Shown piece by piece: positions 2,877 through 30,910 of a DNA stretch of 40,452 bases (positions within the stretch are counted from its first letter, which is position 1; every line of letters starts with the position of its first letter). The DNA lies in assembly GCA_032718475.1 (NCBI GenBank), contig JAUCBJ010006785.1:1-40452 (forward strand), given 5' to 3'. The translations under genes and the position numbers were made by a program. Below the pieces are notes generated by a model. The model worked only from the letters and a program-made list of their open reading frames with translations, did not search any database and had not been told where the DNA came from. This DNA is from Nemertoderma westbladi (Eukaryota; Animalia; Xenacoelomorpha).

Positions 2877-5729
2877 ATGACATACCCAAGTCAGAGAAGA
2901 TCAAGAAATAGGACGGACGAACCGCACCAGACAGGAGAAACTATACAGCACCCGTCGAATCCATTGGAAGCGCAGGCGATGGGGATGGCCACGTTGATCG
3001 ATGCGTTGAAAACGAGGATCGAGCTACCACCCGTGGAACCATTCAAATTCGATGGGAGTAGGCCGGAAGAATATCTACAGTTTCGGCGCATGTATAGTAA
3101 CGAAATACTAACAAAAAACTTGACGCAGGCGGAGTGCCTAAAGTATCTGCAAGTATATACGGGAGGCCCAGCATACGATATCGTGAGGCAATATCAAGGA
3201 ATAGAGGGCGGCTTCACGACAGCATGGCGGGCACTGGATAGGGAATACGGGCACCCGGCCAAGATCATCAGGCAGACGCTGAGGGGCATAACATCGGGTG
3301 GCCTACAGGATAATCCCGTTAGCATTAAGACGTTCGCTAACAAAGTCGAAAAGGCGCTGATCGTGCTGAAGACGCTAGACGCGCCATACGAGCTCAATGC
3401 GTCCAATAACATCACCACGATAGCGCAGGCACTACCGAGTTGGATGCGCAACAAGTGGAGGAAAATTGCTTTCTCCACTCGAGACAAGAAGGGTGCGGAA
3501 CCGGGTTTAGAAGAAATGTCAAACTTCTTAAACTACGAGGCTGAGCTAATAACTGACCCAGTCTACAGCGAAGATAGCCTGGGAAAGGGACCGAAGACGG
3601 ATTACCATAGACCGAAACCAGAGCACAATACATCAAACGCATTACCGAGGCTCAGGCAATCATTGCCATATGCAGCGACGCAGGGGACTGCAAGTCCACA
3701 GCTAGCCGAAGATGAGACAACACCATGGAACGGACAGGGGAACAATAACAGCACGAATAAACATAACCCCAGTACGTCCAGTAGGCTGAATCCAAACAAT
3801 AAGAATAGTAGGGACTTTGGTACGAACGCAACTGCGATACGCAATGCGCTGTATAAAGAGGGCTACGACCCAAAGAGCAAATGCCAGCTACACGCAAATG
3901 CGCTTCATCAAACCATGAACTGCAGGTACTGGCAGGCGCTACCTAGGCAAGATCAGATAGATTATGCGTTGAGCAATAATATCTGCTCGCGATGTGTAAT
4001 GAGTGGACATAGAGCAAGGGAGTGCAAGGAGAAGCCGATAAAATTTGGTCAGAGAAGAGGCCAAACGATGGCGACGAGCACAGTAGGAGCGAAGAAGAGA
4101 GGAACGGTGCTACTTGGAGTAGTACCCGTGCGAGTGATTGGGGAAGGCAATCGATCAGTAACAACGCTAATGCTGGTTGATAGTGGAGCTGCCTTCACAT
4201 TAGTCGAGGAATGGGTGGCCGAAGAGATAGGATTGAGAACGAGGCCAAGCAGAATGGCGGTAACAACCATCTCTAGCAAAGATGAGATCCTGGAGATGAG
4301 GACAGGACGGTGCGCAATTGCAGCAGTGGCACCAGGATGCGACTATGGGGCAACCATCGACCCCATCCAAGTGATAGAGTCAATTAATATCAATGCCAGG
4401 CGACCAACCAACATCGAGGTCGAGCAGTATAAATTCCTGGACGACATTGACTTCTCAATCCCAGACGTGGACGTTAGGAAGGTGTCCATCATAGTAGGCA
4501 TGGACTGCCCAACGGCCCACGAAAGAATGCAAACGGTCTTCGGCGAAGACAAGCAGAGTGACCCGGTGGCCATATTAACACCATTCGGGTGGACGCTGAG
4601 TGGTCCAATTAAGAGCAAGATACCATTTAGGATGTCGGAGACATCAGGATGCATGTTCGCGGGAACAATGCAGGAAATGGGTGACGAGGGAGCAGAGGAG
4701 CAGCTTAAAAGACTGCTCAGACAGGATTTCGAGGGACTGAAAGAAACCGGGGTCGGGACCTCGGTGGAAGACAAGCAGGCTTTACAAAGCGTGGAGGAAT
4801 CGATGACATGCGATGAGGGGCGGTATACTATAGGAATGGTATGGAAACTACCGAAGATACCGCTGCCCGACAATAGGGGGATGGTACTCACGAGACTCCG
4901 CAAGCTGAAACAAACACTAAAACGGAGCCCCGAGAAGAATGAGTACATCCACAGAACAATTAAGAAGTACGTCGAGAAAGGATGGGCCGTGGAGTTACCG
5001 GTCGACGAGCCGAACACGGACAGGACATATTACCTGCCACTACACGTGGCTTTAGATCCAAAGAAAGGTAAACTACGGATGGTAGTCGACGCATCGGCAA
5101 AGACCGATGGAAAGTGCTTAAACGACTACCTGTTAGAAGGCCCAAACATATACAATTCGGGCATAGAGGTGTTACTTAGATTTAGAAATGGGAAACACGC
5201 CTTCACGTGTGACATAGAAGGCATGTTCAACCAAGTCCGTGTAACGGAGGAAGATAGCGACAGTCAGCGCTTCTTATGGTATAACGGCGAGGAAGAACCG
5301 TCGATAATACCGGCATATAAGATGGTAGTACAGAACATGGGGGCCAAGTCGTCTTCATTTACGACGACTATGGCAGTGAGAGACACAGTAAAGGGGAAGG
5401 AAGATAGATACAGCAGTAGGGCCGTCGATATGATTCGACGCGGCTTCTACGTAGACGACGGAATGGAGTCTGGAAATACGGTTAAGGAGATACTGGACAC
5501 AGGGCGCGAGGTTCGCGACATCCTAAAAGGATCCGGCTTTAACCTGACCAAATTCCAATCCAGTTCGGAAGAATTTATTAAGGCGATAGAGGACAGGAGA
5601 CCAGAATCGACCATGGACAATCCCACAACAGCCAAAGGGCAGGACATGGCGATTAAGAGAACAGAATCTCAACAGAAGGCATTGGGAATCGTGTGGGATA
5701 GAGAGACAGACGAACTTAATATCAGCTGA
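2877..5729 (+). CDS. gag-pol: BEL/Pao Gag (capsid-like domain, zinc knuckles), aspartic protease and reverse transcriptase; ends at a premature TGA
   Basis: PFKFDGSRPEEY capsid-like start, CSRCVMSGHRAREC knuckle, LVDSGA protease, LTPFGWTLSGP, KLRMVVDAS, CDIEGMFNQV and FYVDDG RT motifs. Confidence 0.93.
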   Translation: MTYPSQRRSRNRTDEPHQTGETIQHPSNPLEAQAMGMATLIDALKTRIELPPVEPFKFDGSRPEEYLQFRRMYSNEILTKNLTQAECLKYLQVYTGGPAYDIVRQYQGIEGGFTTAWRALDREYGHPAKIIRQTLRGITSGGLQDNPVSIKTFANKVEKALIVLKTLDAPYELNASNNITTIAQALPSWMRNKWRKIAFSTRDKKGAEPGLEEMSNFLNYEAELITDPVYSEDSLGKGPKTDYHRPKPEHNTSNALPRLRQSLPYAATQGTASPQLAEDETTPWNGQGNNNSTNKHNPSTSSRLNPNNKNSRDFGTNATAIRNALYKEGYDPKSKCQLHANALHQTMNCRYWQALPRQDQIDYALSNNICSRCVMSGHRARECKEKPIKFGQRRGQTMATSTVGAKKRGTVLLGVVPVRVIGEGNRSVTTLMLVDSGAAFTLVEEWVAEEIGLRTRPSRMAVTTISSKDEILEMRTGRCAIAAVAPGCDYGATIDPIQVIESININARRPTNIEVEQYKFLDDIDFSIPDVDVRKVSIIVGMDCPTAHERMQTVFGEDKQSDPVAILTPFGWTLSGPIKSKIPFRMSETSGCMFAGTMQEMGDEGAEEQLKRLLRQDFEGLKETGVGTSVEDKQALQSVEESMTCDEGRYTIGMVWKLPKIPLPDNRGMVLTRLRKLKQTLKRSPEKNEYIHRTIKKYVEKGWAVELPVDEPNTDRTYYLPLHVALDPKKGKLRMVVDASAKTDGKCLNDYLLEGPNIYNSGIEVLLRFRNGKHAFTCDIEGMFNQVRVTEEDSDSQRFLWYNGEEEPSIIPAYKMVVQNMGAKSSSFTTTMAVRDTVKGKEDRYSSRAVDMIRRGFYVDDGMESGNTVKEILDTGREVRDILKGSGFNLTKFQSSSEEFIKAIEDRRPESTMDNPTTAKGQDMAIKRTESQQKALGIVWDRETDELNIS

Positions 5730-5769
5730 GCCAGGAGGGCGCAGACATCCACACGAAGAGGGGCTATGT

Positions 5770-8086
5770 ATCGTATATAGCAAGGATATACGATCCCCTA
5801 GCCCTAGCATCCCCATTATTAGTCACGGGGAAACAGATACTCAAAAGAGTATACAAATTGAAGGATGAGTGGGATGTAGAGGTACCAGAGGAAATCAAGA
5901 AACAGTGGAGCAAGTGGACAAGAGACTTGGAGAAGATGGGAACATACAACATGCCCCGAGTGTATTTCCCGGATGGGAACATGACGAGTCTGGACCTACA
6001 CATGTTCTCCGATGCGTCGTTGGAAGCGTACGGAGCGGCACTCTACTTAGTACAACGAGAGGGGGCTCATAAGCCAAGACTAGCCTTTAGCAAAGCAAAG
6101 TCAACGCCGCCAGATTCAGCATCAGTTCCTAAGTTAGAATTGACAGCCGCGAGACTAGGAGTAAGAGCCACAGCCTACCTAGTGGATACTATTCCCAACA
6201 TAGTGGAGACACACTACTGGACGGACTCCATGGTAGTGCTTGGTTGGCTACACAACGAAAGGACGAGATACCCGATATTCGTCGCGAATAGAGTGGACGA
6301 AATAAGGGCGAGCACAGAAATGGAAAGGTGGCACTACTGCCCAACGGACGAGAACCCAGCGGACTTGTTGTCGAGGGGCGTGGTACGCCACACTTTCTTA
6401 AAGAAGGAAGTATTGTGGCAACATGGGCCACAATTTCTGAGCGATAAGGAGGCCTGGCCGCCGATGAGAAAGGTGGACCCGGGCACAGAAGTAGTGTCAG
6501 AGGGAGAAGAGGGAGATTCAGAGGGAGAAGAGATATACTCCCAGATGGTGAGGGAGATTATGGACGTGCAACCAGGACGAGAACTGTGCGATAACCCGAC
6601 GGATAAACTCCTCAGCTACAGTTCTAGTTGGTATAAGACCAAGAAACTAGTGGCGTACTGGAGAGCCTTCAGGAATTTCCTTGCGGGAGTTGGCAAGGAC
6701 AAGAAGATCAGGACAACCATAGATCTGGAAGGAGCGGCCAAGGCAGTGATCCGCTATGAACAACGGAAGAACTATGGCGACGAGGTGGAACGTGTCGGTA
6801 ACCAACAGCACCTCCGACGGGACAGCGAGCTGATTACGCTGTCACCACAACTCAATAACGACGGGATTCTAGTAATGAATTCTAGGGTGGGATACAACAA
6901 CAGCATAGTCGTACCACCGAAACCCATCATCATTCCCACAGGATCGCCAATAGTCCACCAGATTATCTGGGACTCCCACAAATCGATATTGCATGGGGGC
7001 ACTAACCGAACCCTCACAGAGATAAGGAGGACCTATTGGGTCAAACAACTGAGGAAGAAGGTAAAAGCGGTAGTGGGGCAGTGCCAGACCTGCCGACGAG
7101 CGAAGAAGGAGCGAGCCGTACAGGAGATGGCGCCACTACCGGCGAGTAGGGTAAGACAGCACGACCCGCCATTTACGCATTGCGGTGTGGACATGTTCGG
7201 GCCGATAAAGATCAAAGTGATGCGACACACGGAGAAACGCTACGGCATTATCTTCGTATGCAATAATACGCGGGCGGTAGGGATAGAACTCGCCCAAGAT
7301 GCAACCGCATCAGCGTTCATTAACGCCTTAGAAAGGTTTAGGGACCGCAAAGGTGGGACGATCGCAGTGATATACAGCGACAACGGCACCAACTTTGTGG
7401 GCGCAGAGAGTGAGATGGCAGAGGCCTTGGACATCTTGGAGGGAGAAGAAGTCAGGGCAGCCATGAGACGACGACAAGTAAAGTGGGAGAGAAGGACGCC
7501 GTATGCACCACATACACTAGGATGCGTCGAGAGACTGGTGGGCAGTTCAAAGCGTCTAATGACGAAGCTAATGAACACCCACATGGTCACTGAGGACGTC
7601 TTACGGACAGTACTTGCGAAATGCGAGGGGATCATTAATAGCAGACCGCTATATCCGGAGAATGATGACCCTGAGTCATTAGACGTGCTGACGCCTAGCC
7701 ATTTCCTGATGGAAAGGCCAGCGACCATCGATATGCGGGGTGTAGACCCAGATGACATACACTCCCGCCAAAGTTGGAAAGTCGCTAAAGCAATAAGCGC
7801 AGAGTATTGGAGGAGGTGGGTAGAAGAATACCTACCCACGCTCCATAAGCGAAGCAAGTGGAGGAAGCCGAACAGGGAGTTAAGAGTAGGAGATCTCGTA
7901 ATCGTTACGGATGATACTATCATCAACAACCAGTGGCGGTTGGCGAGAGTTGTAGGCACCTACTCAGATGAAGACGGAAGAGTCCGATCGGTAGAAGTGC
8001 GGATAGGTGGTAAGATAGGTGCGAAGGACAGGAAAACCTACAGGAGAGCAGTAGCCAAATGCTGTCTGCTAGAAGGAGCGCCTTAA
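5770..8086 (+). CDS. pol: BEL/Pao RNase H and integrase (continuation of pol after the nonsense codon and a frameshift at ~5760-5770)
   Basis: IARIYDPL upstream of 5858, HMFSDASLEAYGA, PKLELTAA, WTDSMVVL, NPADLLSRG; HHCC (HKSILHGG...CQTC), GVDMFGP, SDNGTNF, GCVERLV catalytic DDE; WVEEYLPTL...RSVEV C-terminus. Confidence 0.93.
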
Positions 8087-8239
8087 CTTGGAGTTAGAGT
8101 AGAGTTTAGTCGTCCAAGATTTGGACTGAGGGGGGTGGGATTGAGGGCGAGACGCCCTTCCCACACAAATAAAATAAAAATAAAATAAAAATAATAGTAC
8201 ATGGTAGGTACGCAGTTAGTAGGCAGAAGTTAGTTAAAA

Positions 8240-8795
8240 GGTACGTAGTACCTAGTTAGTTAGTTAGTTAGAAGGTACGTAGTACCTAGTTAGTTAGAGA
8301 GTTAGAGGGTACGTAGTACCGCTAGTTAGTTAGAGTTAGAGGGTACGTAGTACCGTTAGTTAGTTAGAGTTAGAGGGTACGTAGTACCGTTAGTTAGAGG
8401 AGAGTTAGAGGGTACGTAAGTACCGTTAGTTAGTTAGAGAGTTAGAGGGTACGTAAGTACCGTTAGTTAGTTAGAGAGTTAGAGGGTACTTAGTACCGTT
8501 AGAGAAGAGTTAGAGTTAGGGTACGTAGTACCGTTAGTTAGAGGAGAGTTAGAGGGTACGTAAGTACCGTTAGTTAGTTAGAGAGTTAGAGGGTACGTAA
8601 GTACCGTTAGTTAGTTAGAGAGTTAGAGGGTACGTAGTACCGTTAGAGAAGAGTTAGAGTTAGGGTACGTAGTACCGTTAGTTAGAGAAGAGTTAGAGGG
8701 TACGTAGTACCATTAGTTAGAGGAGAGTTAGAGGGTACGTAGTACTGTTAGTTAGAGAAGAGTTAGAGTTAGAGGGTACGTAGTACCGTTAGTTA
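8240..8795 (+). repeat. 16-copy ~35-bp minisatellite in the 3' region of element A (GGTACGTAGTACC core plus TTAG/TTAGAG runs)
   Basis: Cores at 8240, 8274, 8308, 8342, 8376, 8411, 8448, 8485, 8520, 8555, 8592, 8629, 8664, 8699, 8734, 8775. Confidence 0.9.
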
Positions 8796-10345
8796 GAGAG
8801 AGAGAGTAAGAGGTAAAAGGGGATATAGATATAGATATTAGTTAGCAGTTAGTAGAGATAGAGGGGCATATGAGTACAGCTGGGTAAATCGTATGGCCAC
8901 ACGACGCACACTGCTGTACTGCATAGGCCGACAGAGTAGGCCAGAATGTGGATTAGGGAATAGAATAATCAATAGGAAGCAGTAAGGTAGTAGGATTGAA
9001 ATAAAATCAAAAATAAAATTAGAATAAGAATAGGGCTAAGAAGGGGAACAAATTATGGTAACAGTAGTAAGAATAGGCAATAACTCAGAAATTCAGAAAG
9101 AGATAGGCCATCGAACTGAACTTAAACCACCTAAGCCCATCACTCATCACTTTGCGCCTTGGCAAGGCACCACCTACGGGTGAGCGATCGGGCAGAGTTC
9201 GACATGGCAGGTAAACTTGTGAGAGAGGAGAGAAGCAGAGGAGAGGGAGGAGGAAGCTAGGGTGCAGAGCTACGGCTTCGAGGAATAAGCAGCCTTAGAC
9301 GAACTTCGTTGGGCTTCGTCAGGGAGTTCGGGGGAGTCTCTAGGGAAAGAACTGGGGTGGACGGTGGGATCACCGAAACAGTCGACGTCGGGATTGCAAG
9401 CAATGAAGATGATCCTATGGGATGCCACCAGAGGGAGACAACCGGGCCACTCTGAGGGGCCACCTGCGAAACGGTATCGGGCACTAATAACACCAGCGCC
9501 CAAGGAGCCAACAACCGGAATCAACAGGGAGGTGGCGGCGAGAGTCCGAAAGCAGAAAGCGGATCCCAGAGGACGGGTGGTGACCAAGAAACGACCCAGG
9601 GAAGAGGACGCCAGGGGGAACTATCCTCAGAGGAACAGATAGGTTCCCAGGGCCGGGGGAGAGAAACTGGGACTTGGACGTGGTACGCCTGGAAGGCGCC
9701 GCGTGGGACGTACGAACTATTAAGTACAAATCTAATTAATGCAAATAATCATATAAGTGCAATTTGTATGTACGTACGTAGTGATTAGTAATCTAGAACA
9801 TATACGCTCGAAGTAAGTACTATAGTCAAACAACCTTTCTCAATTAGCTACTGGGACTGGGGGGTAAACTGACTATGGCACTATGGACGAGACACCAGAC
9901 AATTTCACACTTCTTGAGTGCGACGGCACGAGAGGGGAGGGAGATTTGTCAGAAGGGATGAGGTAGTCAGAGTGGGGTTGAGGGACGGAGTAATGGAGCG
10001 AAGTGCAGAGAGAGTGCGGACGCAATTCTAGTGTGGGGGGGGGGGAGAATAAGAGGCTGAGTGAGGGACGAGGAGGTCCGGGTGTATGGGAGAGTTAGGA
10101 TGAGAGTGAAGAAGAGATAGGGCGGAAGTGTTGGGGAAACAAAAGTTGCGTGAGAGGTGAGCGCGATCGGCCCGACATGAGACGCCAGGCACACAGGGTA
10201 GCGTTATCATACCCATAGGGGGCGGCCTGGAAAGCCGGCTCCGAGAGAAAAGAATTCCACCCCACACCCGATACTAGATCGGGATCCAGCGGGATTGTAG
10301 CGCACTTTTTTGGTTGATGCTATCTTCTTACCGGGAAGATAGCAT

Positions 10346-10354
10346 GGGGGGGAG
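10346..10354 (+). other. Polypurine tract of element A
   Basis: GGGGGGGAG directly before TGTTAG, preceded by an 11-bp hairpin (10317-10345). Confidence 0.75.
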
Positions 10355-10884
10355 TGTTAGCTTATTCAATCCCGCTAACACCCCATAAAGTTATAAGCCG
10401 ATAAGCAATATTGGGAGCCACGAGATTGGGTAATTAACCAACTCGTGCCATCCCAATAAGAATGGGAAGGAGAAGCACACAATGAGGGTCAGGGGCCAAA
10501 CCCCTAACCAAGAGAGAATAGGTGGAGTGAACGGGAACACTCCAAAGGGCGCCAACAAGGGTATCAACCAATCAGAGGGGGGAAAGGCATCGATTAGGTA
10601 AAGTAACAAGGCCAACCGTGCAATATAGCCACTTGGCAGTAATCATACCAATTCAGTTATCTCAGTGCAATACCGGTGCTAGATTAGGTTACATAGTTTT
10701 AGATAGGGAAGGACCGGGACTTTAGTTACCGTATCCCGCCTTCCATATACGACAATATCTATATATCTATATCTGCATATCATATTATATACGACAAACA
10801 TCAGAACTCATTCACTCTTTATACACGGCGGGGACGCGTGAACTAAAACCGGATAAACCGGGATCCCTCTTGGATCCCGTCACA
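10355..10884 (+). repeat. 3' LTR of element A (530 bp)
   Basis: Starts TGT after the PPT and ends GTCACA where the satellite begins; CCAAT box near 10568, TATA-like AATATAG at 10622, Inr-like TCAGTT at 10653. No second copy in the window to confirm the boundaries. Confidence 0.75.
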
Positions 10885-12838
10885 AATAGTTCGGAAATAA
10901 AAACAACAACTGTACCAGGAATAGTTGGAAAATAAAAACAACAACTATACCAGCAATAGTTGGGAAATAAAAACAAAAACTGTACCAGGAATAGTTGGGA
11001 AATAAAAACAACAACTATACCAGCAAAAGTTGGGAAATAAAAACAACAACTGTACCAGGAATAGTTGGAAAATAAAAACAACAACTATACCAGGAATAGT
11101 TGGGAAATAAAAACGACAACTATACCAGCAATAGTTGGGAAATAAAAACAACAACTGTACCAGGAATAGTTGGAAAATAAAAACAACAACTATACCAGGA
11201 ACAGTTGGAAAATAAAAACAACAACTGTACCAGGAATAGTTGGAAAATAAAAACAACAACTATACCAGGAATAGTTGGAAAATAAAAACAACAACTATAC
11301 CAGCAATAGTTGGGAAATAAAAACAACAACTGTACCAGGAATAGTTGGAAAATAAAAACAACAACTATACCAGCAATAGTTGGGAAATAAAAACAAAAAC
11401 TGTACCAGGAATAGTTGGGAAATAAAAACAACAACTATACCAGCAATAGTTGGGAAATAAAAACAACAACTGTACCAGGAATAGTTGGAAAATAAAAACA
11501 ACAACTATACCAGGAATAGTTGGAAAATAAAAACAACAACTATACCATCAATAGTTGGGAAATAAAAACAAAAACTGTACCAGGAATAGTTGGGAAATAA
11601 AAACAAAAACTGTACCAGGAATAGTTGGAAAATAAAAACAACAACTATACCAGCAATAGTTGGGAAATAAAAACAACAACTATACCAGGAATAGTTGGGA
11701 AATAAACACAAAAACTATACCAGCAATAGTTGGGAAATAAACACAACAACTGTACCAGGAATAGTTGGGAAATAAAAACAAAAACTGTACCAGGAATAGT
11801 TGGAAAATAAAAACAACAACTATACCAGGAATAGTTGGGAAATAAAAACAACAACTATACCAGGAATAGTTGGGAAATAAACACAAAAATTATACCAGCA
11901 ATAGTTGGGAAATAAAAACAACAACTGTACCAGCAATAGTTTGGAAATAAAAACAACAACTGTACCAGGAATAGTTGGAAAATAAAAACAACAACTGTAC
12001 CAGGAAAAGTTGGGAAATAAACACAAAAACTATACCAGCAATAGTTGGGAAATAAACACAACAACTGTACCAGGAATAGTTGGAAAATAAAAACAACAAC
12101 TATACCAGGAATAGTTGGGAAATAAAAACAACAACTATACCAGGAATAGTTGGGAAATAAACACAAAAACTATACCAGCAATAGTTGGGAAATAAAAACA
12201 AAAACTGTACCAGGAATAGTTGGGAAATAAAAACAACAACTATACCAGCAATAGTTGGGAAATAAAAACAAAAACTGTACCAGGAATAGTTGGGAAATAA
12301 AAACAACAACTATACCAGCAAAAGTTGGGAAATAAAAACAACAACTGTATCAGGAATAGTTGGAAAATAAAAACAACAACTATACCAGGAATAGTTGGGA
12401 AATAAAAACGACAACTATACCAGCAATAGTTGGGAAATAAAAACAACAACTGTACCAGGAATAGTTGGAAAATAAAAACAACAACTATACCAGGAACAGT
12501 TGGAAATTAAAAACAACAACTGTACCAGGAATAGTTGGAAAATAAAAACAAAAACTATACCAGGAATAGTTGGAAAATAAAAACAACAACTATACCAGCA
12601 ATAGTTGGGAAATAAAAACAACAACTGTACCAGGAATAGTTGGAAAATAAAAACAACAACTATACCAGCAATAGTTGGGAAATAAAAACAAAAACTGTAC
12701 CAGGAATAGTTGGGAAATAAAAACAACAACTATACCAGCAATAGTTGGGAAATAAAAACAACAACTGTACCAGGAATAGTTGGAAAATAAAAACAACAAC
12801 TATACCAGGAATAGTTGGAAAATAAAAACAACAACTAT
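10885..12838. repeat. 35-bp satellite array, left part (~56 units)
   Basis: Consensus AATAGTTGG(G/A)AAATAAAAACAACAACT(A/G)TACCAG(G/C); phase conserved from 10885 to 12810 (55 x 35). Confidence 0.98.
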
Positions 12839-14073
12839 TGTTCGCGCTTTCAGACCTTTGGCAGTTTAACCCGCCAAATTAGGATGTCTGTTAGATAATA
12901 AATCACTTTAGCCGATGACAAATATTTGATTCACTACACTAGTCGAAACCAATCTGTGCGCGATCATTCACCCGCTGGATAATTCCCGGGAGATTGGGTT
13001 CGACGGCTTAATTTTATTGCTATGTAAGCTTAATGTATTATTCGACTGACAGTATTATATAATCTCTGACAATATTATTCACCTTCGGGAATATTAACAG
13101 TTCCTTTAGGACGTGGCGCTTTATTTATATAAACAGAGTTATGACTTAAACTACTCACAACGATATGGCTTAATTATAATTCACATATATGGCGCATTCT
13201 TTAGGAAATGCTTCGTTATCAGTATCACTCGCACACAATGCTGCACAATACTGCACACTGATCTGCCGATCTTCACTGATTTTAGTTACATATAAAAGGA
13301 ACACGGACTGACTCATGTAGGGGCTATCAAATAACATTAGATTCACTTCAAACCACTTTAACATAAGTCACAATCGTTATGTATAACCTTTCTCTCTTAC
13401 CTTCAGTATATCAAGAATATTGGGTTTTCGGGGTTATTTATCGTTATTCCAAATATAATAATTCATCAACCAAATTATGAAGTACAGACAGCAAATAGCA
13501 GTATAACAATATAAAGTATGCACAGTGTTACACAGTATGCAGTGTATGCAGTACTGCAGTATGCATTGATTGCATTGAGTTAGGTTAGTCAAGTTAGATA
13601 ACGGATATATGTCCTTATGATTAAGCCTACTAGTGTACGGCTAAAACAGTAAAGCACAAAATACTTCCAAGCCGTTCTTTCTTTTGCTCAGGACTCAATG
13701 TAAACACTGCACATAGGCATTGCGTCATTTCTCGGAAATTTTCTGTACAAGGAGCCACAAAAACGCTCTAATTGGCTGACTGAACTGAGAGACGCCGTAG
13801 AACAAAGGAAATCAACACGTATGAATGTCAGCTGTTAACCGTAGTCATAGTAACTACTGTTCAAGAGTAGCTATCACCCTTTTGCGTCACGAATTGCCAT
13901 AGAATCATAAAATATGCCTTTCACAGTACACATACGGAGGAAATAGGTCTTAGATCCTCTAAAAACACCGATACAGCAATAATACGGTCTCTTACACTTA
14001 TTAAATCAACTACAGAGTATTTTAATGTAAAAGATAATAAAAATAACGGGGCAATTCAGCAAAGGCTTTTACA
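12839..14073 (-). repeat. 3' LTR of element B (1235 bp)
   Basis: Same length and, as far as I can read, same sequence as 24228-25462; identical small ORFs appear in both copies. Confidence 0.96.
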
Positions 14074-14081
14074 CCGCTCCC
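14074..14081 (-). other. Polypurine tract of element B
   Basis: Minus strand GGGAGCGG directly before the LTR start TGTAAAAGCC, preceded by hairpin GAAAAT-CCC-ATTTTC (14083-14097). Confidence 0.7.
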
Positions 14082-15176
14082 AGAAAATGGGATTTTCAGT
14101 CTATAAAATATAAAAATCACAGTTTCTAAAACCTAAAGATACTCTAAACAGTTAGTCTTTCTTGCGCGGACGGCGTTTACGCAGTTTTTTAAAGCTAGCA
14201 AGAGTCCTTTTCTCTTTGGGGGGAACCACTTTACTAAGAGGGCCATAACTCCTGGGTGAAGGGTGCAATATGATTGCATTAGAAGGTTTGGGTTTACTGT
14301 CGGTGTCACGTCCATTTCGATATGCTTCTCCTCGAGCTGATTTTCCTCCGCTTGTCATGGGATACGTTCGTCCAAAACTCTCGCAGAGAATAGGGTTTTC
14401 TAAGCTTGATATCTTCTTTGAGATTCGAGGTTTCCCAATCGAACTGAGATAAGGCCAATTCGTTTATCGATTGGACTTACTGTGATAACTTACGTTTATC
14501 TGAACAAACGCAGGTTTCTTTTTTGATCTTTATAAAATAGCGTTTAACTCGTTTCGTACAACGCTCTCCTTCACCTTGATGAAGGGTTGTATCGCGTTAA
14601 ACGGGACGACCATACGGTTGGATAGTGATATTAGGTGTCTGCGTCATAATCCAGCTAGGTAAGATGGGCGGCTAGCTAGAAATCACTGTCGGAGTGTTAC
14701 CGATTAATTGTTAGGGTAGCACTAGATCTTGAACAGTGAATACCGTCCAAGAGGATCCGCGACACCACCAGGATCGCAGGTCTGAGGTCCAACTAAGGAA
14801 TAAGGAGGTTTGACCGAGTATTCCGGGACTCTGATCGTAGGTTTACTCCAGGATCGTTCGAGCCGAGTGAGCATAGGTGGTACGTCAAACAAGTTTCGCT
14901 CGAAACTCCAGTAAATATGACGAGCACAACTGTGTTTAACACAACGTTTCCGTGGATGTTTATGTCTTTCCGTTTATTGGCTGGATCTAGGGCATTTATC
15001 GTAATAATACCAAAGACGCACGTCTGGTAGGGGTAACGCGGATGATATTTATTTGTTGTTACAATGCTTCTATCAAGAATTCCAAATATACGTTGGAGTT
15101 ACCGCGTTTATTTGTTTCTGTAGTGTCTTTTCTTTCGAGTCGATTTCGAATAGAATTTTCGCATTCGAATTTCAGT

Positions 15177-15509
15177 TTATGGTTCCGACTCCGCTGGGCA
15201 GGATATATAGTCGACATAGTCCGTATTGTGTAAATCGATAGGATGACCAGTGGTTAAGAAGACCATATACGTACCATTACGCTGCGTATATCGAGCAGCG
15301 AATTTTCTATAGTCCAACTCGCGCGCGAGCTGCTCTTGGGACATTGGTGGTTCGATATAACGACCATCGTCCTCCGCAGCAGTTGGACTAACGTCGCCGC
15401 GTATTAAGCTATCAACAAACGCTTGTAAAAGTAGAGTACATCGCTCCCCGATACCAAGACCATCTTCTATCAACTCCGTCATGTCTGCTATATATGAGTT
15501 TATCCACAT
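15177..15509 (-). CDS. Possible 110-aa accessory ORF in the 3' region of element B, function unknown
   Basis: ATG-initiated, same strand as gag, protein-like composition, in a GC-richer island of an AT-rich region; no family recognised. Confidence 0.3.
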   Translation of the reverse strand: MWINSYIADMTELIEDGLGIGERCTLLLQAFVDSLIRGDVSPTAAEDDGRYIEPPMSQEQLARELDYRKFAARYTQRNGTYMVFLTTGHPIDLHNTDYVDYISCPAESEP

Positions 15510-16314
15510 TATAAGGAGTTTATATTTAGGCTAGCGAGCGTCGCTGCCTACTCCAATTAACCCCCGGACAGTACGAGATCCTCAGCGCCGATGTGTCGTC
15601 GCCGCCGTACTTTCGCCAACGACGTAGCCGCACAACGACAACGACAACCGGCACAAGTCACTCGACTGTCCGTCCCAAAGGCTTAGATGTACTTCAGGTA
15701 TTCCTTGGAGAGTTAGGTTACTTTACGATTGCGACTGGCTACTGTAAACACACCTTAGCAGTAACATTCACCTATAAACTCACAAATACCACACACACAA
15801 CTTGTCACAAATTACACACATTCGGGCCATTTGTCCGTTAGTCAATGCCTTCCAGAATGTCACTGTATTATTATGTATCCTTGGATACTAGTAGTGCGCT
15901 ATTTATTCCCTATGCTATTCAATGGGACAAGCTTTCTATTGTTCGTTTAACTCAATTCTAATTCTAGCGTGGTTGTTGCTATGGTGACATTATGCAAAGC
16001 TAGCGGTAGAATTAGGGTGATTCCAATGCATACAGATCTGGGATGTTATTTAATAGTAATTCTTTAATAGTCAATGTCCTGTTTTATACATGACTTTATG
16101 AATTTTATCGGCTATTAACTATGTTTGGGAGACTTTCGTACACGCATACGCATAATAATATAAATCTCCGCTCCCTTGATCTATTAATTAATGGAATTTT
16201 GGGAATGTTATAAATCGCGTAAAATGGCAATTTATTAAATTCATTAAAAGACATGAATTTAAATTTATTCCCTGAAATTTTATTATTTGATAATTAAATG
16301 GACATATTTTGATT

Positions 16315-16600
16315 CTAGAACTTGTCTAGGGACACAAGATCCTTAATTCTAAGAAAATTGTCTCTTTAAGAATATCGGTAAATGCTGCGATATCTTAATT
16401 GACTAGAATTGTTGAAGGATCTGAATTTTACAGATTTTGACTTATTTGATTTGTAAATATTAACTAATTAATATTTGAGATGGGCACCGATTTATTCCAG
16501 AACTTGTCTGGGGACGTTAACCACTGATTCTATAATTTGTCTTTCAAGTATATCGGTGGGTGCCACGATATCTTAATCGACTAGAATTACAGATGGTCAA
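16315..16600 (-). ncRNA. Two diverged copies (offset 182 bp) of a structured RNA element: ~85-nt long hairpin plus small hairpin
   Basis: Long hairpins at 16337-16422 and 16517-16600, small hairpins at 16315-16329 and 16497-16511; pairing retained despite sequence change. Confidence 0.55.
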
Positions 16601-17132
16601 AGGGTTTAACAGATTTATTTTGCGTTATACGCTACTGTTAAAGGGACATCACGCTACTATATGTATTATTTAATATACGGTATGAGAGCAATATCGCACG
16701 AAGCAATGTCAGTGTGAAGAGGCAAGTCGTTTCCAAGGTCTACCCAGAGCTTGGTTTAGCCGAGACACGAGGATCTGAACTTTGCATTCCTAATACTCTG
16801 CCTACCAATAATACTTAAATATAGTAGTGGCTTATTGTACTTTAATAAGTACAGACATTTCATCTTACTGTAGTTACGTATTTATAATATAATACGGACA
16901 GTAAGGAAAGAGAAAAATAATTATTTCTTCGCCGTCGCACTAAATATAATATAAGTAAGTATGTACATAATAAACACGAATATATTGCACTATTCTACAA
17001 AATAATCGCTAAATAATATTCTACTAAATTAAATAAAACGATTATAATAAAATTACATAGTAATACATACATAAATATAAGAATGATAAAATAATATAAA
17101 ATAATAGAGTCACACGCCCACTCCATATGTTG

Positions 17133-22064: not shown

Positions 22065-22199
22065 GACTAGGTATGTACAGTTGAATGCCTACTGCTATAT
22101 TACAGTCTAAGCAAGTCTAGTAACTCAGTATGAACTGCTAGCCTAGTAATTAATTACCGTTACTGCTACTCAGTGTAGCGTGATATATATATAATATAT

Positions 22200-22450
22200 T
22201 AGAATACCGGTATACTTATAGTATATATAACTATATAAGTATTATTACAGACTAGGTTTATCACAGAATACCGGTATAATTTTAGCACAAATATATATAA
22301 ATATATAATAGGCCTATCGGAATACCAGTATACAGCTTACAGTTTGTAGTATATATAATTCTGGAATAGAATTAATTACAAGTACCGGTATAATTTCAGC
22401 CTAGATTTATAGAAATAAGATAATAGGCCTATCGTAAATACCGGTATATC
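22200..22450. repeat. About 5 diverged ~60-bp repeats with (A)ATACCGGTATA core in the 5' UTR of element B
   Basis: Cores at about 22203, 22268, 22321, 22383 and 22437. Confidence 0.65.
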
Positions 22451-23384
22451 AATTATTTTGGAATAATTGAATTTCTGAACTTTAGGGTTACTTGGTTACT
22501 TTAACTTACTTTATTACCGTTATTTAAGCAGTAATCCAACTGATATTGAGACCTAATTGTTGTATGGTAGGCCTACTATTTATAAATCGTTAGATTTGAT
22601 TTATAATATATATATACCCGTTTTAATGGGTTTTGTCAATGTTTGAAATAAATGTTATTATTTCTGGGGAGTAATCACTACACAAAGCGGTGCGCTTTCA
22701 GTGAAGTGTTACTTATAGACACTAAAACAAATATTACTAATTTACCTAAGTTACTTAATACTACAAATTACGTACAATTCGGGTGAGATTACAATCTCTA
22801 AATAAATGCAAAAATTTACAAAAAACACAAAATACGAATTTTTAGGGTAATTTTACAAGAAGTCTACAAACCAGCCTAACAAAGGGTTAGAAAACTGGTT
22901 ATTACAACGGACAGGGTACTGCGGTATTTGAAAATAATACGTAGTAGTAAATACACTGCGTTGTCCAGATAGGAAAATACCACCGCCTGACGACCTATAG
23001 CCGTATCGTTATAGGTTCTACGTTATGTATCACGGAGTGTTCCTACCTAGAAGTTAATAGAGCTAATCGAATGTGCCTATCAACCACTTTACAACACAAA
23101 TATAATGCCTACACTAATTATTTTCGGAAAGCACTGTACACTAAACCCTAAATTAGGTACGAGTACTTGTACAACAGATAATCAGTAATTAAATATACTT
23201 GAACAGCTAAAAGAACCACGGCATCTGCTGGAGTGACCGATGCACAAAATCACCAGTCTTTACCTACGCCAAGCAGCCCGTGTAGTACCGAGGTTAATTT
23301 AACTATAGCGGTATGTATAACAAACACAATTACTGTAGGAACAAACTTGGGGAATGAATGTTGCGAATAATCGCATAAACTCTG

Positions 23385-23965
23385 AATAATAAATATTACG
23401 CTACGCGTACAAACTACTCAAACAAAATGCAGACCGAACACTGACAGACTACTATCAAGCCTAAACAAATACGGTATATGCAGACTCCGAAATAATTAGG
23501 TAGTATGCGTTCTAACCCAGTAGTACGACTTATTCTTTAATTGGGGATTTACCTTATAGCTTTGGCTGCCCCAACTTCCCAACCGTTCTTTATCGGACAA
23601 GGGCTCTACACAGACTGCAATCCGTTCAGACCTAATAACAGCCAGACAACTATCCAGCCTACAAATTATCTAAATAATATTATACGCTACCTGTACCGAC
23701 TACACAAACAAAGTACAGACCAAACGATGGCAGACTACTCTCAAGCCTAAATAAACTACAGGACATGCAGACTCCGAAATAGTTAGGTAGTATGCGTTCT
23801 AACCCAGTAGTACGACTTATTCTTTAATTGGGGGTTTACTTTACAGCAATGGCTACCCCAACTTCCCAACCGTTCTTTATCGGACAGGTGACCTACACAC
23901 ACTGCAATCCGTTCAGACTTAACAGCAATCAGACAACAGCTCAGCCTACAACTTGTCTGTACAAT
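23385..23965. repeat. Diverged 287-bp tandem duplication in the 5' UTR of element B
   Basis: ATGCAGACTCCGAAATA.TTAGGTAGTATGCGTTCTAACCCAGTAGTACGACTTATTCTTTAATTGGGG at ~23478 and ~23765. Confidence 0.9.
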
Positions 23966-24216
23966 ATGATCAGGCTTACACGCCTTCTGTTCAATACTGG
24001 CCTACAAACAATTAAAACTTGACAGAAATAAGTAAAAGTCTCAATAAAAAACCAGGGCGGGCCCTCCCTGATTAATTATTAAGGCCTACCGGTATATAAT
24101 TATCAAAATCGAATAATACTGCTGTAGGTACCGGTCCGGATGATCAGGCTGTCAGGCCTACTGGTTACCGGTCGACCGGTACTTTCGACTTTATTGCTTA
24201 CTGCAATAAAGAAGCA

Positions 24217-24227
24217 ATATCCGTTAT
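24217..24227 (-). other. Primer-binding-site position of element B: ATAACGGATAT, non-tRNA type, complementary to LTR 24987-24997
   Basis: Begins at the first base after the 5' LTR end (...CGAACA); no TGG present; exact 11-nt reverse complement lies inside the LTR. Confidence 0.55.
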
Positions 24228-25462
24228 TGTTCGCGCTTTCAGACCTTTGGCAGTTTAACCCGCCAAATTAGGATGTCTGTTAGATAATAAATCACTTTAG
24301 CCGATGACAAATATTTGATTCACTACACTAGTCGAAACCAATCTGTGCGCGATCATTCACCCGCTGGATAATTCCCGGGAGATTGGGTTCGACGGCTTAA
24401 TTTTATTGCTATGTAAGCTTAATGTATTATTCGACTGACAGTATTATATAATCTCTGACAATATTATTCACCTTCGGGAATATTAACAGTTCCTTTAGGA
24501 CGTGGCGCTTTATTTATATAAACAGAGTTATGACTTAAACTACTCACAACGATATGGCTTAATTATAATTCACATATATGGCGCATTCTTTAGGAAATGC
24601 TTCGTTATCAGTATCACTCGCACACAATGCTGCACAATACTGCACACTGATCTGCCGATCTTCACTGATTTTAGTTACATATAAAAGGAACACGGACTGA
24701 CTCATGTAGGGGCTATCAAATAACATTAGATTCACTTCAAACCACTTTAACATAAGTCACAATCGTTATGTATAACCTTTCTCTCTTACCTTCAGTATAT
24801 CAAGAATATTGGGTTTTCGGGGTTATTTATCGTTATTCCAAATATAATAATTCATCAACCAAATTATGAAGTACAGACAGCAAATAGCAGTATAACAATA
24901 TAAAGTATGCACAGTGTTACACAGTATGCAGTGTATGCAGTACTGCAGTATGCATTGATTGCATTGAGTTAGGTTAGTCAAGTTAGATAACGGATATATG
25001 TCCTTATGATTAAGCCTACTAGTGTACGGCTAAAACAGTAAAGCACAAAATACTTCCAAGCCGTTCTTTCTTTTGCTCAGGACTCAATGTAAACACTGCA
25101 CATAGGCATTGCGTCATTTCTCGGAAATTTTCTGTACAAGGAGCCACAAAAACGCTCTAATTGGCTGACTGAACTGAGAGACGCCGTAGAACAAAGGAAA
25201 TCAACACGTATGAATGTCAGCTGTTAACCGTAGTCATAGTAACTACTGTTCAAGAGTAGCTATCACCCTTTTGCGTCACGAATTGCCATAGAATCATAAA
25301 ATATGCCTTTCACAGTACACATACGGAGGAAATAGGTCTTAGATCCTCTAAAAACACCGATACAGCAATAATACGGTCTCTTACACTTATTAAATCAACT
25401 ACAGAGTATTTTAATGTAAAAGATAATAAAAATAACGGGGCAATTCAGCAAAGGCTTTTACA
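24228..25462 (-). repeat. 5' LTR of element B (1235 bp)
   Basis: Minus strand TGTAAAAGCC...CGCGAACA; direct repeat of 12839-14073. Confidence 0.96.
25109..25279 (-). promoter_or_regulatory. Candidate U3 promoter motifs of element B: CCAAT box and two TGACGCAA (ATF/CEBP-type) sites
   Basis: Minus-strand AGCCAATTAG around 25157-25166, ATGACGCAA at 25109-25117, GTGACGCAA at 25271-25279. Motif match only. Confidence 0.35.
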
Positions 25463-28400
25463 ACTATACCAGCAATAGTTGGGAAATAAAAACAAAAACT
25501 GTACCAGGAATAGTTGGGAAATAAAAACAAAAACTGTACCAGGAATAGTTGGAAAATAAAAACAACAACTATACCAGCAATAGTTGGGAAATAAAAACAA
25601 CAACTATACCAGGAATAGTTGGGAAATAAACACAAAAACTATACCAGCAATAGTTGGGAAATAAACACAAAAACTATACCAGCAATAGTTGGGAAATAAA
25701 CACAACAACTGTACCAGGAATAGTTGGAAAATAAAAACAACAACTATACCAGGAATAGTTGGGAAATAAAAACAACAACTATACCAGGAATAGTTGGGAA
25801 ATAAACACAAAAACTATACCAGCAATAGTTGGGAAATAAACACAACAACTGTACCAGGAATAGTTGGGAAATAAAAACAAAAACTGTACCAGGAATAGTT
25901 GGAAAATAAAAACAACAACTATACCTGGAATAGTTGGGAAATAAAAACAATAACTGTACCAGGAATAGTTGGAAAATAAAAACAACAACTGTACCAGGAA
26001 TAGTTGGAAAATAAAAACAAAAACTGTACCAGGAATAGTTGGAAAATAAAAACAACAACTATACCAGCAATAGTTGGGAAATAAAAACAACAACTGTACC
26101 AGGAATAGTTGGGAAATAAAAACAACAACTGTACCAGGAATAGTTGGAAAATAAAAACAACAACTGTACCAGGAATAGTTGGAAAATAAAAACAACAACT
26201 ATACCAGGAATAGTTGGAAAATAAAAACAAAAACTATACCAGGAATAGTTGGGAAATAAAAACAACAACTATACCAGGAATAGTTGGGAAATAAAAACAA
26301 TAACTGTACCAGGAATAGTTGGAAAATAAAAACAACAACTGTTCCAGGAATAGTTGGAAAATAAAAACAATAACTGTACCAGTAATAGTTTGGAAATAAA
26401 AACAAAAACTGTACCAGGAATAGTTGGAAAATAAACACAACAACTGTACCAGGAACAGTTGGAAAATAAAAACAACAACTGTACCAGGAATAGTTGGAAA
26501 ATAAAAACAACAACTATACCAGGAATAGTTGGAAAATAAAAACAACAACTATACCAGCAATAGTTGGGAAATAAAAACAACAACTGTACCAGGAATAGTT
26601 GGAAAATAAAAACAACAACTATACCAGCAATAGTTGGGAAATAAAAACAAAAACTGTACCAGGAATAGTTGGGAAATAAAAACAACAACTATACCAGCAA
26701 TAGTTGGGAAATAAAAACAAAAACTGTACCAGGAATAGTTAGGAAATAAAAACAACAACTATACCAGCAAAAGTTGGGAAATAAAAACAACAACTGTACC
26801 AGGAATAGTTGGAAAATAAAAACAACAACTATACCAGGAATAGTTGGGAAATAAAAACAACAACTATACCAGCAATAGTTGGGAAATAAAAACAACAACT
26901 GTACCAGGAATAGTTGGAAAATAAAAACAACAACTATACCAGGAACAGTTGGAAAATAAAAACAACAACTGTACCAGGAATAGTTGGAAAATAAAAACAA
27001 CAACTATACCAGGAATAGTTGGAAAATAAAAACAACAACTATACCAGCAATAGTTGGGAATTAAAAACAACAACTGTACCAGGAATAGTTGGAAAATAAA
27101 AACAACAACTATACCAGCAATAGTTGGGAAATAAAAACAAAAACTGTACCAGGAATAGTTGGGAAATAAAAACAACAACTATACCAGCAATAGTTGGGAA
27201 ATAAAAACAACAACTGTACCAGGAATAGTTGGAAAATAAAAACAACAACTATACCAGGAATAGTTGGAAAATAAAAACAACAACTATACCAGCAATAGTT
27301 GGGAAATAAAAACAAAAACTGTACCAGGAATAGTTGGGAAATAAAAACAAAAACTGTACCAGGAATAGTTGAAAAATAAAAACAACAACTATACCAGCAA
27401 TAGTTGGGAAATAAAAACAACAACTATACCAGGAATAGTTGGGAAATAAACACAAAAACTATACCAGCAATAGTTGGGAAATAAACACAACAACTGTACC
27501 AGGAATAGTTGGGAAATAAAAACCAAAACTGTACCAGGAATAGTTGGAAAATAAAAACAACAACTATACCAGGAATAGTTGGGAAATAAAAACAACAACT
27601 ATACCAGGAATAGTTGGGAAATAAACACAAAAACTATACCAGCAATAGTTGGGAAATAAAAACAACAACTGTACCAGCAATAGTTTGGAAATAAAAACAA
27701 CAACTGTACCAGGAATAGTTGGAAAATAAAAACAACAACTGTACCAGGAATAGTTGGGAAATAAACACAAAAACTATACCAGCAATAGTTGGGAAATAAA
27801 CACAACAACTGTACCAGGAATAGTTGGAAAATAAAAACAACAACTATACCAGGAATAGTTGGGAAATAAAAACAACAACTATACCAGGAATAGTTGGGAA
27901 ATAAACACAAAAACTATACCAGCAATAGTTGGGAAATAAACACAACAACTGTACCAGGAATAGTTGGGAAATAAAAACAAAAACTGTACTAGGAATAGTT
28001 GGAAAATAAAAACAACAACTATACCAGGAATAGTTGGGAAATAAAAACAATAACTGTACCAGGAATAGTTGGAAAATAAAAACAACATCTGTACCAGGAA
28101 TAGTTGGAAAATAAAAACAAAAACTGTACCAGGAATAGTTGGATAATAAAAACAACAACTATACCAGCAATAGTTGGGAAATAAAAACAACAAATGTACC
28201 AGGAATAGTTGGGAAATAAAAACAACAACTGTACCAGGAATAGTTGGAAAATAAAAACAACAACTGTACCAGGAATAGTTGGAAAATAAAAACAACAACT
28301 ATACCAGGAATAGTTGGAAAATAAAAACAAAAACTATACCAGGAATAGTTGGGAAATAAAAACAACAACTATACCAGGAATAGTTGGGAAATAAAAACAA

Positions 28401-29268
28401 TAACTGTACCAGGAATAGTTGGAAAATAAAAACAACAACTGTACCAGGAATAGTTGGAAAATAAAAACAATAACTGTACCAGTAATAGTTTGGAAATAAA
28501 AACAACAACTGTACCAGGAATAGTTGGAAAATAAAAACAACAACTGTTCCAGGAATAGTTGGAAAATAAAAACAATAACTGTACCAGTAATAGTTTGGAA
28601 ATAAAAACAAAAACTGTACCAGGAATAGTTGGAAAATAAACACAACAACTGTACCAGGAACAGTTGGAAAATAAAAACAACAACTGTACCAGGAATAGTT
28701 GGAAAATAAAAACAACAACTATACCAGGAATAGTTGGAAAATAAAAACAACAACTGTACCAGGAATAGTTGGAAAATACACACAACAACTGTACCAGCAA
28801 TAGTTGGAAAATACACACAACAACTGTACCAGCAATAGTTGGGAAATAAAAACAACAACTGTACCAGGAATAGTTGGAAAATAAATACAATAACTGTACC
28901 AGTAATAGTTTGGAAATAAAAACAACAACTGTACCAGGAATAGTTGGAAAATAAAAACAACAACTGTTCCAGGAATAGTTGGAAAATAAAAACAATATCT
29001 GTACCAGTAATAGTTTGGAAATAAAAACAAAAACTGTACCAGGAATAGTTGGAAAATAAAAACAACAACTGTTCCAGGAATAGTTGGAAAATAAAAACAA
29101 TAACTGTACCAGTAATAGTTTGGAAATAAAAACAACAACTGTACCAGGAATAGTTGGAAAATAAAAACAACAACTATACCAGGAACAGTTGGAAAATAAA
29201 AACAACAACTGTACCAGGAATAGTTGGAAAATAAAAACAACAACTGTACCAGGAATAGTTGGAAAATA
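25463..29268. repeat. 35-bp satellite array, right part (~109 units)
   Basis: Same consensus as the left part; phase conserved from 25474 to 29254 (108 x 35). Confidence 0.98.
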
Positions 29269-29560: not shown

Positions 29561-30277
29561 TTTATTATTATTATTTAAATACAACAATTATATCACATAT
29601 CAATATAATATAAAACTAAAAGTAATATTGTAATATACGATACATTGAACATTGCGTTAGAGTATGCTACGGCAAAGGCTACTGACCGGGCCCTAATCCC
29701 CAAAGAGTCCACCAGGGGATGGGCCAGCAGTTGCCAGGACAGACGCCGCGTTGCCCACCAGAATGGCCATGACGATACGCTGAAGTAGAAACCTGTGGGA
29801 GCGCGGCTCATGCGTCATGGTGTGGAGACGGGACCCAATCTCCTGGAGGAAGGAGGACGTCTCCGGACCGGGGCGCCCCAGGGTCTCGAACGCAACAGGG
29901 TGAAATATATGACCCCGCTCCATCACCTCCGCATATGTCAAGTTCTTTCCCTGTTCGGCACCCTCTGCAGCACGACCCCCTGCAATTAGCGTCTGTTGGC
30001 GGTGACTAGGGGCAAGGGGGTCAACCACTGTGGCATCCCAGGTTAGCATTCGACCCTGGGACCAAGGCACAAGTGTCACCCCGTCTACACGCTTCCCGTC
30101 ATTGCGGCAGAGTCCTGATGGTTCCAGAATGGAGGGAACCCCACAGCTGACCAATGCCCGTCTCACAATATCATTAACCATGGTGTGGCGAGGGAACCGG
30201 CCTGCGCGCCTCCGGCATGAGAGACCATGTAGACCATTGAACGCTACTGGATTGCCACAATGGTCGCAGATCTTCAC
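29561..30277 (-). mobile_element. 5'-truncated non-LTR retrotransposon, CRE-like clade with restriction-like endonuclease
   Basis: ORF fragment followed by a short AT-rich 3' UTR and a (TAA)n-like tail near 29561-29575; 3' boundary approximate, no TSD found. Confidence 0.75.
29693..30277 (-). pseudogene. C-terminal CCHC zinc knuckle and PD-(D/E)xK restriction-like endonuclease fragment
   Basis: CDHCG...HGLSC, RHTMVND, DGKRVDG, WDATVVD, AEQGK, FHPVAFETLG, LQRIVMAILVGNA match the pattern of CRE-clade ORF C-termini. Confidence 0.85.
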
Positions 30278-30910
30278 TTCACTGTATTTCTACAGCTTAT
30301 TGAGCTCAACATTACTCATTCACTATAGTTGGTTGTCCTTCCGCAGTTTCCCAAACGGAAACTCCCCCTATTAACACTCTTCATTACATTGTATTCTTGA
30401 CTCTTACGATATTTTTACGTTTATATTATTAGATCTCTTATTATGTATTCATGTTCTTGTATTTCCGTATATCTTATTACCCCTTACCGCTTATAATCCT
30501 ATATTATTATCTTATATGTTGTCTATAATAAATATGCTCCTAATTGCCAATCAAATAAACAAATTATTTTTTTTTATGGGACGTAACCGTGTAAACTGGG
30601 TGAAATCCATATATAGTTAAACATATTACGATCACATAGATCATCTTATTGTTTTATACACAAGAGCATAGCAACCGCTCTTACAGTTTGGGAAAACTCA
30701 AATAAAACTCTATGAAATTTACAATTATAAATAAATAAATAAAATTATATATTAATTATTTTATTTCTTAGTAATTCTTTACTATACCACGTTAATAAGC
30801 CTTTATAGCCAAGTTGGTATGTATTACAGTCTATCATTTAGGCGATTTTAACTTCTGTAGCTAGACTTTAAATTTTGAAGACGACACCTTTATTTAATTT
30901 GGATACAAAT

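Follow-up and report, generated by a model that had tools for sequence, protein, structure and literature searches.

How does a retrotransposon that carries no tRNA primer site start the synthesis of its minus-strand DNA? The question is raised by an element found in Nemertoderma westbladi contig JAUCBJ010006785.1, within a stretch of 40,452 nucleotides which was analysed as a whole and is called here the window. The element is young, non-autonomous and BEL/Pao-derived, and lacks a tRNA primer site. Its features, and those of related loci, are collected in Table 1. The end of the LTR is fixed by the 5-bp duplication ATAGT, which flanks the element on both sides. Since the LTRs are identical and the target duplication is intact, the insertion is recent, the ends of the element are certain, and the element must have been copied recently with its present primer-binding site (PBS).

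Table 1. Positions of the element and its signals in the window, and of primer-related regions in relatives
Feature	Position	Strand	Remarks
BEL/Pao-derived LTR retrotransposon	25462-12839	minus	12,624 bp
5' LTR	24228..25462	minus	1,235 bp, TG...CA; 100% identity to 3' LTR
3' LTR	12839..14073	minus	1,235 bp, TG...CA; 1,235/1,235 bases shared with 5' LTR
Target-site duplication ATAGT, 5' side	25463..25467	minus	
Target-site duplication ATAGT, 3' side	12834..12838	minus	
11 nt at PBS position	24217..24227	minus	offset 0 from LTR end, no TGG
Exact complement of PBS-position 11-mer	24987..24997	minus	LTR position 466-476; candidate self-primer
Same complementary 11-mer in 3' LTR	13598..13608	minus	
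Non-coding leader	22065..24227	minus	2.16 kb, with 287-bp and 114-bp tandem duplications
Stop-free frame, 1,651 codons	17133..22088	minus	Gag and protease; first ATG at 22064
Purine-rich tract GGGAGCGG, likely PPT	14074..14081	minus	before 3' LTR
Candidate signals	24402..24520	minus	AATAAA at 24514 and 24407; TATA-like words at 24520 and 24450
Splice-donor-like GTAAGA	24784..24789	minus	consensus match, ~200 nt downstream of 11-mer
Predicted 9-bp hairpin, just behind PBS position	24189..24211	minus	RNAfold on U5 end and leader, without shuffle control
35-bp satellite, insertion target of element	25460..29268, resumes 10885-12838		
Junction-type regions in relatives	L008:682-1100; L012:2079-2800; L053:8632-9200		
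Junction-type families	L008, L012, L017, L043, L053, L061, L065		10-15 nt pairing
Further junction-type loci	L003, L021, L026, L029, L032, L037, L055, L070, L071		

The best protein matches of the 1,651-codon frame are BEL/Pao polyproteins (22-33% identity). DUF1759 (PF03564, E 2.5e-11) is the sole Pfam match in the frame; PF03564 is present in 7/7 homologs of the protein, and PF05380 also in 6 of the 7. Three Cys/His knuckles and a DSG protease motif can be read from the translation, where the protease motif is followed by short remnants similar to the terminal part of RNase H. RT, RNase H and integrase domains were found in the element neither by the Pfam search nor in the translation, and because of their absence the element needs a helper. 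No match to the element protein, to alignment A2 or to the LTR-end pattern was found in viral contigs. At the place of the PPT before the 3' LTR, relatives carry GGGGCCGG. The region of about 3 kb that separates the gag frame from the 3' LTR (14074-17132) has short frames only (83-117 codons) and includes a 100-bp duplication whose copies have diverged; the region may be what is left of an additional gene.

The window hosts two other BEL/Pao elements, both on the plus strand and both devoid of paired LTRs or a usable PBS. The second element (about 1430-10885) has gag-pol in two frames and an apparent 3' LTR of ~2.7 kb, in which a unit of 34-37 bp is repeated in tandem, and its 5' LTR was not found; the third (30872-about 39300) is broken into four frames, with no 5' LTR match. 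In the interval from the satellite to the third element there is a 198-codon frame on the minus strand (29693-30289). Positions 115-930 are occupied by a tandem repeat of 163-164 bp, and a 28-bp palindrome lies there at 550-577.

The first-pass annotation had noted that the 5' LTR ends in CGAACA and is followed, without TGG, by ATAACGGATAT, and that the exact complement of these bases is contained in both LTRs. Both readings hold: ATAACGGATAT (24227-24217) directly follows the LTR end, TGG is absent from the first 8 leader bases, and the 11-mer is present in the window at three places only, the PBS position and the two LTRs. The CCAAT and TGACGC motifs reported upstream of the 11-mer are also in place, at 25164 the former, at 25278 and 25116 the latter. 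In 20,000 dinucleotide shuffles of the LTR, an 11-nt complement was found at offset 0 in 13 cases and at offsets 0-5 in 42, and a 10-nt complement at offsets 0-5 in 181; the earlier chance estimate of 3e-4, or a few-fold higher, was about right. An 11-nt LTR complement is available to 3 of 10,114 internal positions. The duplex between the PBS and the 11-mer is the strongest in the LTR (-14.9 vs -11.9 kcal/mol for the next), and its extension upstream of the 11-mer is not significant, as 344 of 1,192 other LTR segments do equally well. Priming from the polyadenylated 3' end was rejected, since neither AATAAA nor ATTAAA is found near the 11-mer.

A match of this kind may be fortuitous, or a relic left at the LTR edge by an old inverted duplication; in either case the 11-mer would belong to U3, and another primer, such as the RNA of the helper element, would be used. 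Many windows were scanned, and events with a frequency of 1 in 500 to 1 in 1,500 get picked up by such a search; for this reason the 11-nt match is by itself suggestive, not decisive. Matches of 11 nt do occur away from the PBS, because another complement of the same length, which is one of the 3 internal positions above, pairs 24119-24109 with 24434-24424 on the minus strand, 108 nt into the leader and at LTR position 1029. This second pairing, which may be due to chance or correspond to a U5-leader helix, accounts for both of the leader control windows (2/55) that reach 11 nt in the element.

A scan of BEL families lacking TGG for complementarity between PBS and LTR, suggested by the first-pass annotation, speaks against coincidence. 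Thirty polyproteins related to the third BEL element of the window, and not to the element studied, were aligned, relatives of that third element being from corals, urchins and molluscs; 78 loci were taken from metagenome contigs, as the best of at least 542 confirmed stretches. The LTR end could be fixed by comparing 5' and 3' copies in 7 families, corresponding to 8 loci (for L061 by way of L065, which is of the same family); a ragged end led to the exclusion of L028. None of the 8 loci has TGG. A complement of 10-15 nt in the own LTR is found in 7/7 of these families and in 7/8 loci, and its letters differ from family to family. In 6 families the complement is formed across a predicted GT-AG splice junction, the introns of the survey being predicted from consensus only, and in one it is contiguous. 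The contiguous case, L015 (11 nt at offset 3, region 566-930), is surrounded by junction-type families in the tree, and the similarity between its 5' and 3' LTRs is only 74%. The other complements lie across a GTAAG...AG junction of the LTR, at offsets 0-4, and measure 12 nt in L008, L012, L053 and L043, 15 nt in L017 and 10 nt in L065; in L061 the junction complement is of 10 nt under a loose acceptor rule and of 6 under a strict one. In the element, the complement is not formed only across a GT-AG junction of the LTR, its match being contiguous. LTRs ending in TATA instead of CA were seen in L015, L053 and L028/L029.

Matches between families are of 9 nt at most; longer ones occur only inside the L061/L065 family. 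Among control windows taken from the leader, a match as long as the observed one was present in 0/55 for six loci, in 1/55 for L065 and, at the strict value, in 23/55 for L061. A blind scan was extended to 53 other loci with at least 400 upstream bases, a further 17 being too short. A junction complement of at least 10 nt was found in 10 of the 53 loci, against 1/53 for the decoy, and in all 10 the match is separated from an ACA/ATA end by 0-5 nt, for which the background is 17%; 4 of the 10 belong to families already counted. No candidate intron is present in 21 of the 43 misses, and the missed loci need not hold an LTR. In a looser test on 10 sequences, matches of 10-11 nt were found in 7, and no complement of at least 10 nt was found in L020, L045 and L066; this test weighs less, because the LTR end was chosen by the match itself among 14-59 candidates, some of them bearing TGG. 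Overall, the signature is found in 16 families, 7 with a fixed end and 9 from the looser scans; the identity in the RT region is 42-67% among the 15 families compared. The pairing of different letters in each family amounts to covariation across families. The same type of match in 7/7 tested families without TGG raises the prior for the element well above chance. The element appears to be only distantly related to the surveyed families: in a Gag-protease tree obtained by a quick search on 45 rows, in which five survey loci had no usable row, its branch is long and falls outside the clade that they form, and the placement is unsure.

The primer could also be a tRNA fragment or another small RNA of the host, the match to the LTR being incidental or regulatory. 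Belpaoviridae are tRNA-primed according to the ICTV profile (PMC8742986), and half-tRNA priming exists in Ty1/copia (PMC6317226). In the element, the absence of TGG precludes pairing with the 3' end of a mature tRNA at offsets 0-5, and tRNA and Rfam searches of its 5' part detected no element-encoded tRNA and no known RNA. Moreover, PBS letters in the surveyed families are family-specific and match only the own LTR, a pattern that a conserved tRNA would not give. Priming by a host RNA is the least probable of the explanations weighed here, and is judged highly improbable.

The signals of the LTR can be read in more than one way. Downstream of the 11-mer lie its only TATA-like words and the AATAAA sites listed in Table 1. 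Combined with AATAAA at 24407, the TATA-like word at 24520 would make an ordinary U3-R-U5 layout, with the 11-mer in U3, as expected if the match were accidental or a relic. Yet a TATA-like word is expected in 80% of shuffled LTRs (it was found in 1,596/2,000), and the one at 24520 overlaps an AATAAA. In L012, L017 and L043, TATA-like boxes precede the junction by ~35-140 nt. The place of the primer site in the LTR, in fractions of its length, is 0.38 in the element and 0.39-0.57 in relatives.

Acceptor-like sites were identified by consensus at 25030 and 24277. Since most relatives use a splice junction, self-priming by another piece of the LTR has also been considered, in which an RNA starting from the TATA-like word at 24520 would be spliced from a predicted donor at 24789 or 24471 to an acceptor at 24409, and the junction would pair with 9 leader bases at offset 8. 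The 24471-24409 intron would fit between the TATA-like word and AATAAA 24407. Nevertheless, with 3,216 loose junctions and 13 offsets to choose from, a match of 9 nt is at chance level, offset 8 departs from the 0-4 of relatives, and the acceptor at 24409 fails the strict pyrimidine rule. Such a junction primer is accordingly rated as very unlikely.

Variants of the element were found in the public run X1, which is of uncertain kind, available as contigs only, and contains 38% of the sampled words of the element. X1 contigs cover the whole element in many variants, and intron-type ends were found at 0 of 7 joints; for both reasons the run looks like DNA. A single contig spans this part of U3, with 9 differences over 25004-25462 (~98% alike), and then departs from the window after 25004 until about 24896. 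At its loose end, read by eye, the first six letters of the 11-mer are kept and the following ones differ. The altered primer site counts against a simple invariance of the site, and is in line with a chance or relic origin of the match; compensation and decay look the same in this variant, because the contig shows the LTR and not the PBS. No variants at the PBS position are present among the 40 of 762 X1 difference rows listed. The divergent segment (24896-25003, ~100 nt) starts 6 nt before the candidate primer, and may mark a site of recombination close to the border of U3 and R. All considered, the view that the match is accidental or a relic is held to be unlikely.

Folding predictions are sensitive to the ends assumed for the RNA. 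In the local RNAfold prediction the PBS is unpaired, owing to the 9-bp hairpin behind it. The predicted probability of the helix between PBS and 11-mer is 0.85-0.97 for RNAs starting 0-10 nt upstream of 24997 and including 30-60 nt of leader, and falls to 0-0.22 for starts at least 20 nt upstream; the pair probability decreases to 0.15 with 120 nt of leader and to 0 with 250 nt. Values from 0 to 1.0 were obtained for relatives in the same test, and for this reason the fold is weak evidence either way. The loop between PBS and 11-mer is of 759 nt in the element, vs 89-219 nt in relatives. It had been proposed earlier that transcription must start near 24997: this is stronger than what relatives require, but it agrees with the prediction of a helix only for starts within ~10 nt of that position.

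Taken together, the data point to priming of minus-strand DNA synthesis by an 11-mer of the element's own RNA, in a Tf1-like manner, and this is considered quite probable. Transcription would start at or slightly upstream of 24997, and the 11-mer would therefore be part of R. It would anneal to the PBS across the 759-nt loop, or from a second packaged RNA, probably aided by the Gag zinc knuckles. The RT of a helper element would provide the RNase H that cuts after the eleventh base, leaving a 3'-OH primer; strong-stop DNA would then jump to the 3' R, whose end would lie near AATAAA 24514 or 24407, and the 3' LTR would serve to regain the primer sequence. In most relatives the primer would be made when an intron of the LTR is spliced out, and the element and L015 have it in contiguous form.

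The initial suggestion of self-priming in BEL/Pao elements fares differently at two levels. For the superfamily it is sustained by the 7/7 families, and the case is strong by sequence. This locus is among the less secure examples: self-priming is inferred here, the X1 LTR differs at the primer site, and the side helices of the Tf1 'pretzel' are not significant in the element (27/200 and 12/200 shuffles as good). On balance, one may lean towards the view that much of the BEL/Pao diversity of marine invertebrates is tRNA-free and takes its primer from the own R region, usually via a spliced LTR intron; the element would be an intron-less form, relying on a 0.76-kb loop or a second RNA and on the enzymes of a helper.

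Self-priming is not the textbook mechanism for BEL/Pao elements. If true, BEL/Pao would be the third LTR superfamily with self-priming, beside Tf1/sushi, where it is shown, and the copia TAR lineage, where it is predicted; the missing TGG would be explained without calling the PBS decayed, and in junction-type relatives the start of reverse transcription would be tied to host splicing. Self-priming would also make the elements independent of the supply of tRNA and exempt from silencing by tRNA fragments.

Self-priming in Belpaoviridae is not reported in the accessible parts of open papers, PMC3601003, PMC3286476 and PMC8220671 included; subscription papers, Repbase, GyDB, the full ICTV report and bioRxiv supplements are outside this scope and may hold a report. 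Passages on the PBS or on self-priming are similarly missing from the available portions of PMC3118150, PMC554778, PMC9094657 and PMC6238403, and three short motifs gave 0 matches in 7 supplement files of PMC13524379. The ICTV profile describes the replication of Belpaoviridae as poorly understood, and assigns to them tRNA priming from an 18-nt PBS for tRNA-Arg or tRNA-Gly (PMC8742986). A tRNA-Tyr-like site is described for Achilles (PMC4580426). The element shares with Belpaoviridae (Semotivirus; BEL/Pao) the TG...CA LTRs, the target duplication, the PPT, a Gag with DUF1759 and three zinc knuckles, and the protease motif. In contrast, it has no 18-nt PBS for either tRNA, lacks TGG at the start of the leader, and is devoid of the Pol domains. 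The LTR and the whole element, with 1,235 and 12,624 bp, slightly exceed the ranges given by ICTV for the family. Cer7 of Caenorhabditis elegans, a BEL-type element, has reportedly been proposed to encode its own primer, as a tRNA-like gene with CCA, whereas no tRNA-like sequence was found in the element studied here.

Self-priming has been predicted for the plant TAR lineage (Ty1/copia; Houba, Osr-1) and for plant Tcn1 by the same criterion that the element satisfies, a complement of at least 10 nt starting 0-5 nt behind the LTR (PMC6317226). These elements differ in superfamily and host, and self-priming is a prediction in both cases. The closest parallel is with Tf1/sushi elements, for which self-priming has been described (PMC7175516, PMC4600332 and PMC10085805). 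In Tf1 an RNase H cut after the eleventh base has been shown (PMC7175516), and a three-helix 'pretzel' including two side helices is known (PMC10085805). Tf1 and Tf2 of Schizosaccharomyces pombe and the other Tf1/sushi elements (Ty3/gypsy chromoviruses, Tj1 included) have in these sources, like the element, an 11-nt PBS right behind the 5' LTR, complementary to the own LTR, and no tRNA site. Unlike them, the element has a Gag of BEL/Pao type (DUF1759) and no chromodomain integrase, its loop is of 759 nt with no significant pretzel side helices, the 11-mer is placed at the RNA 5' end by inference, and most of its BEL/Pao relatives would need splicing to form the primer. The element is not a member of Tf1/sushi, though it most likely works like Tf1.
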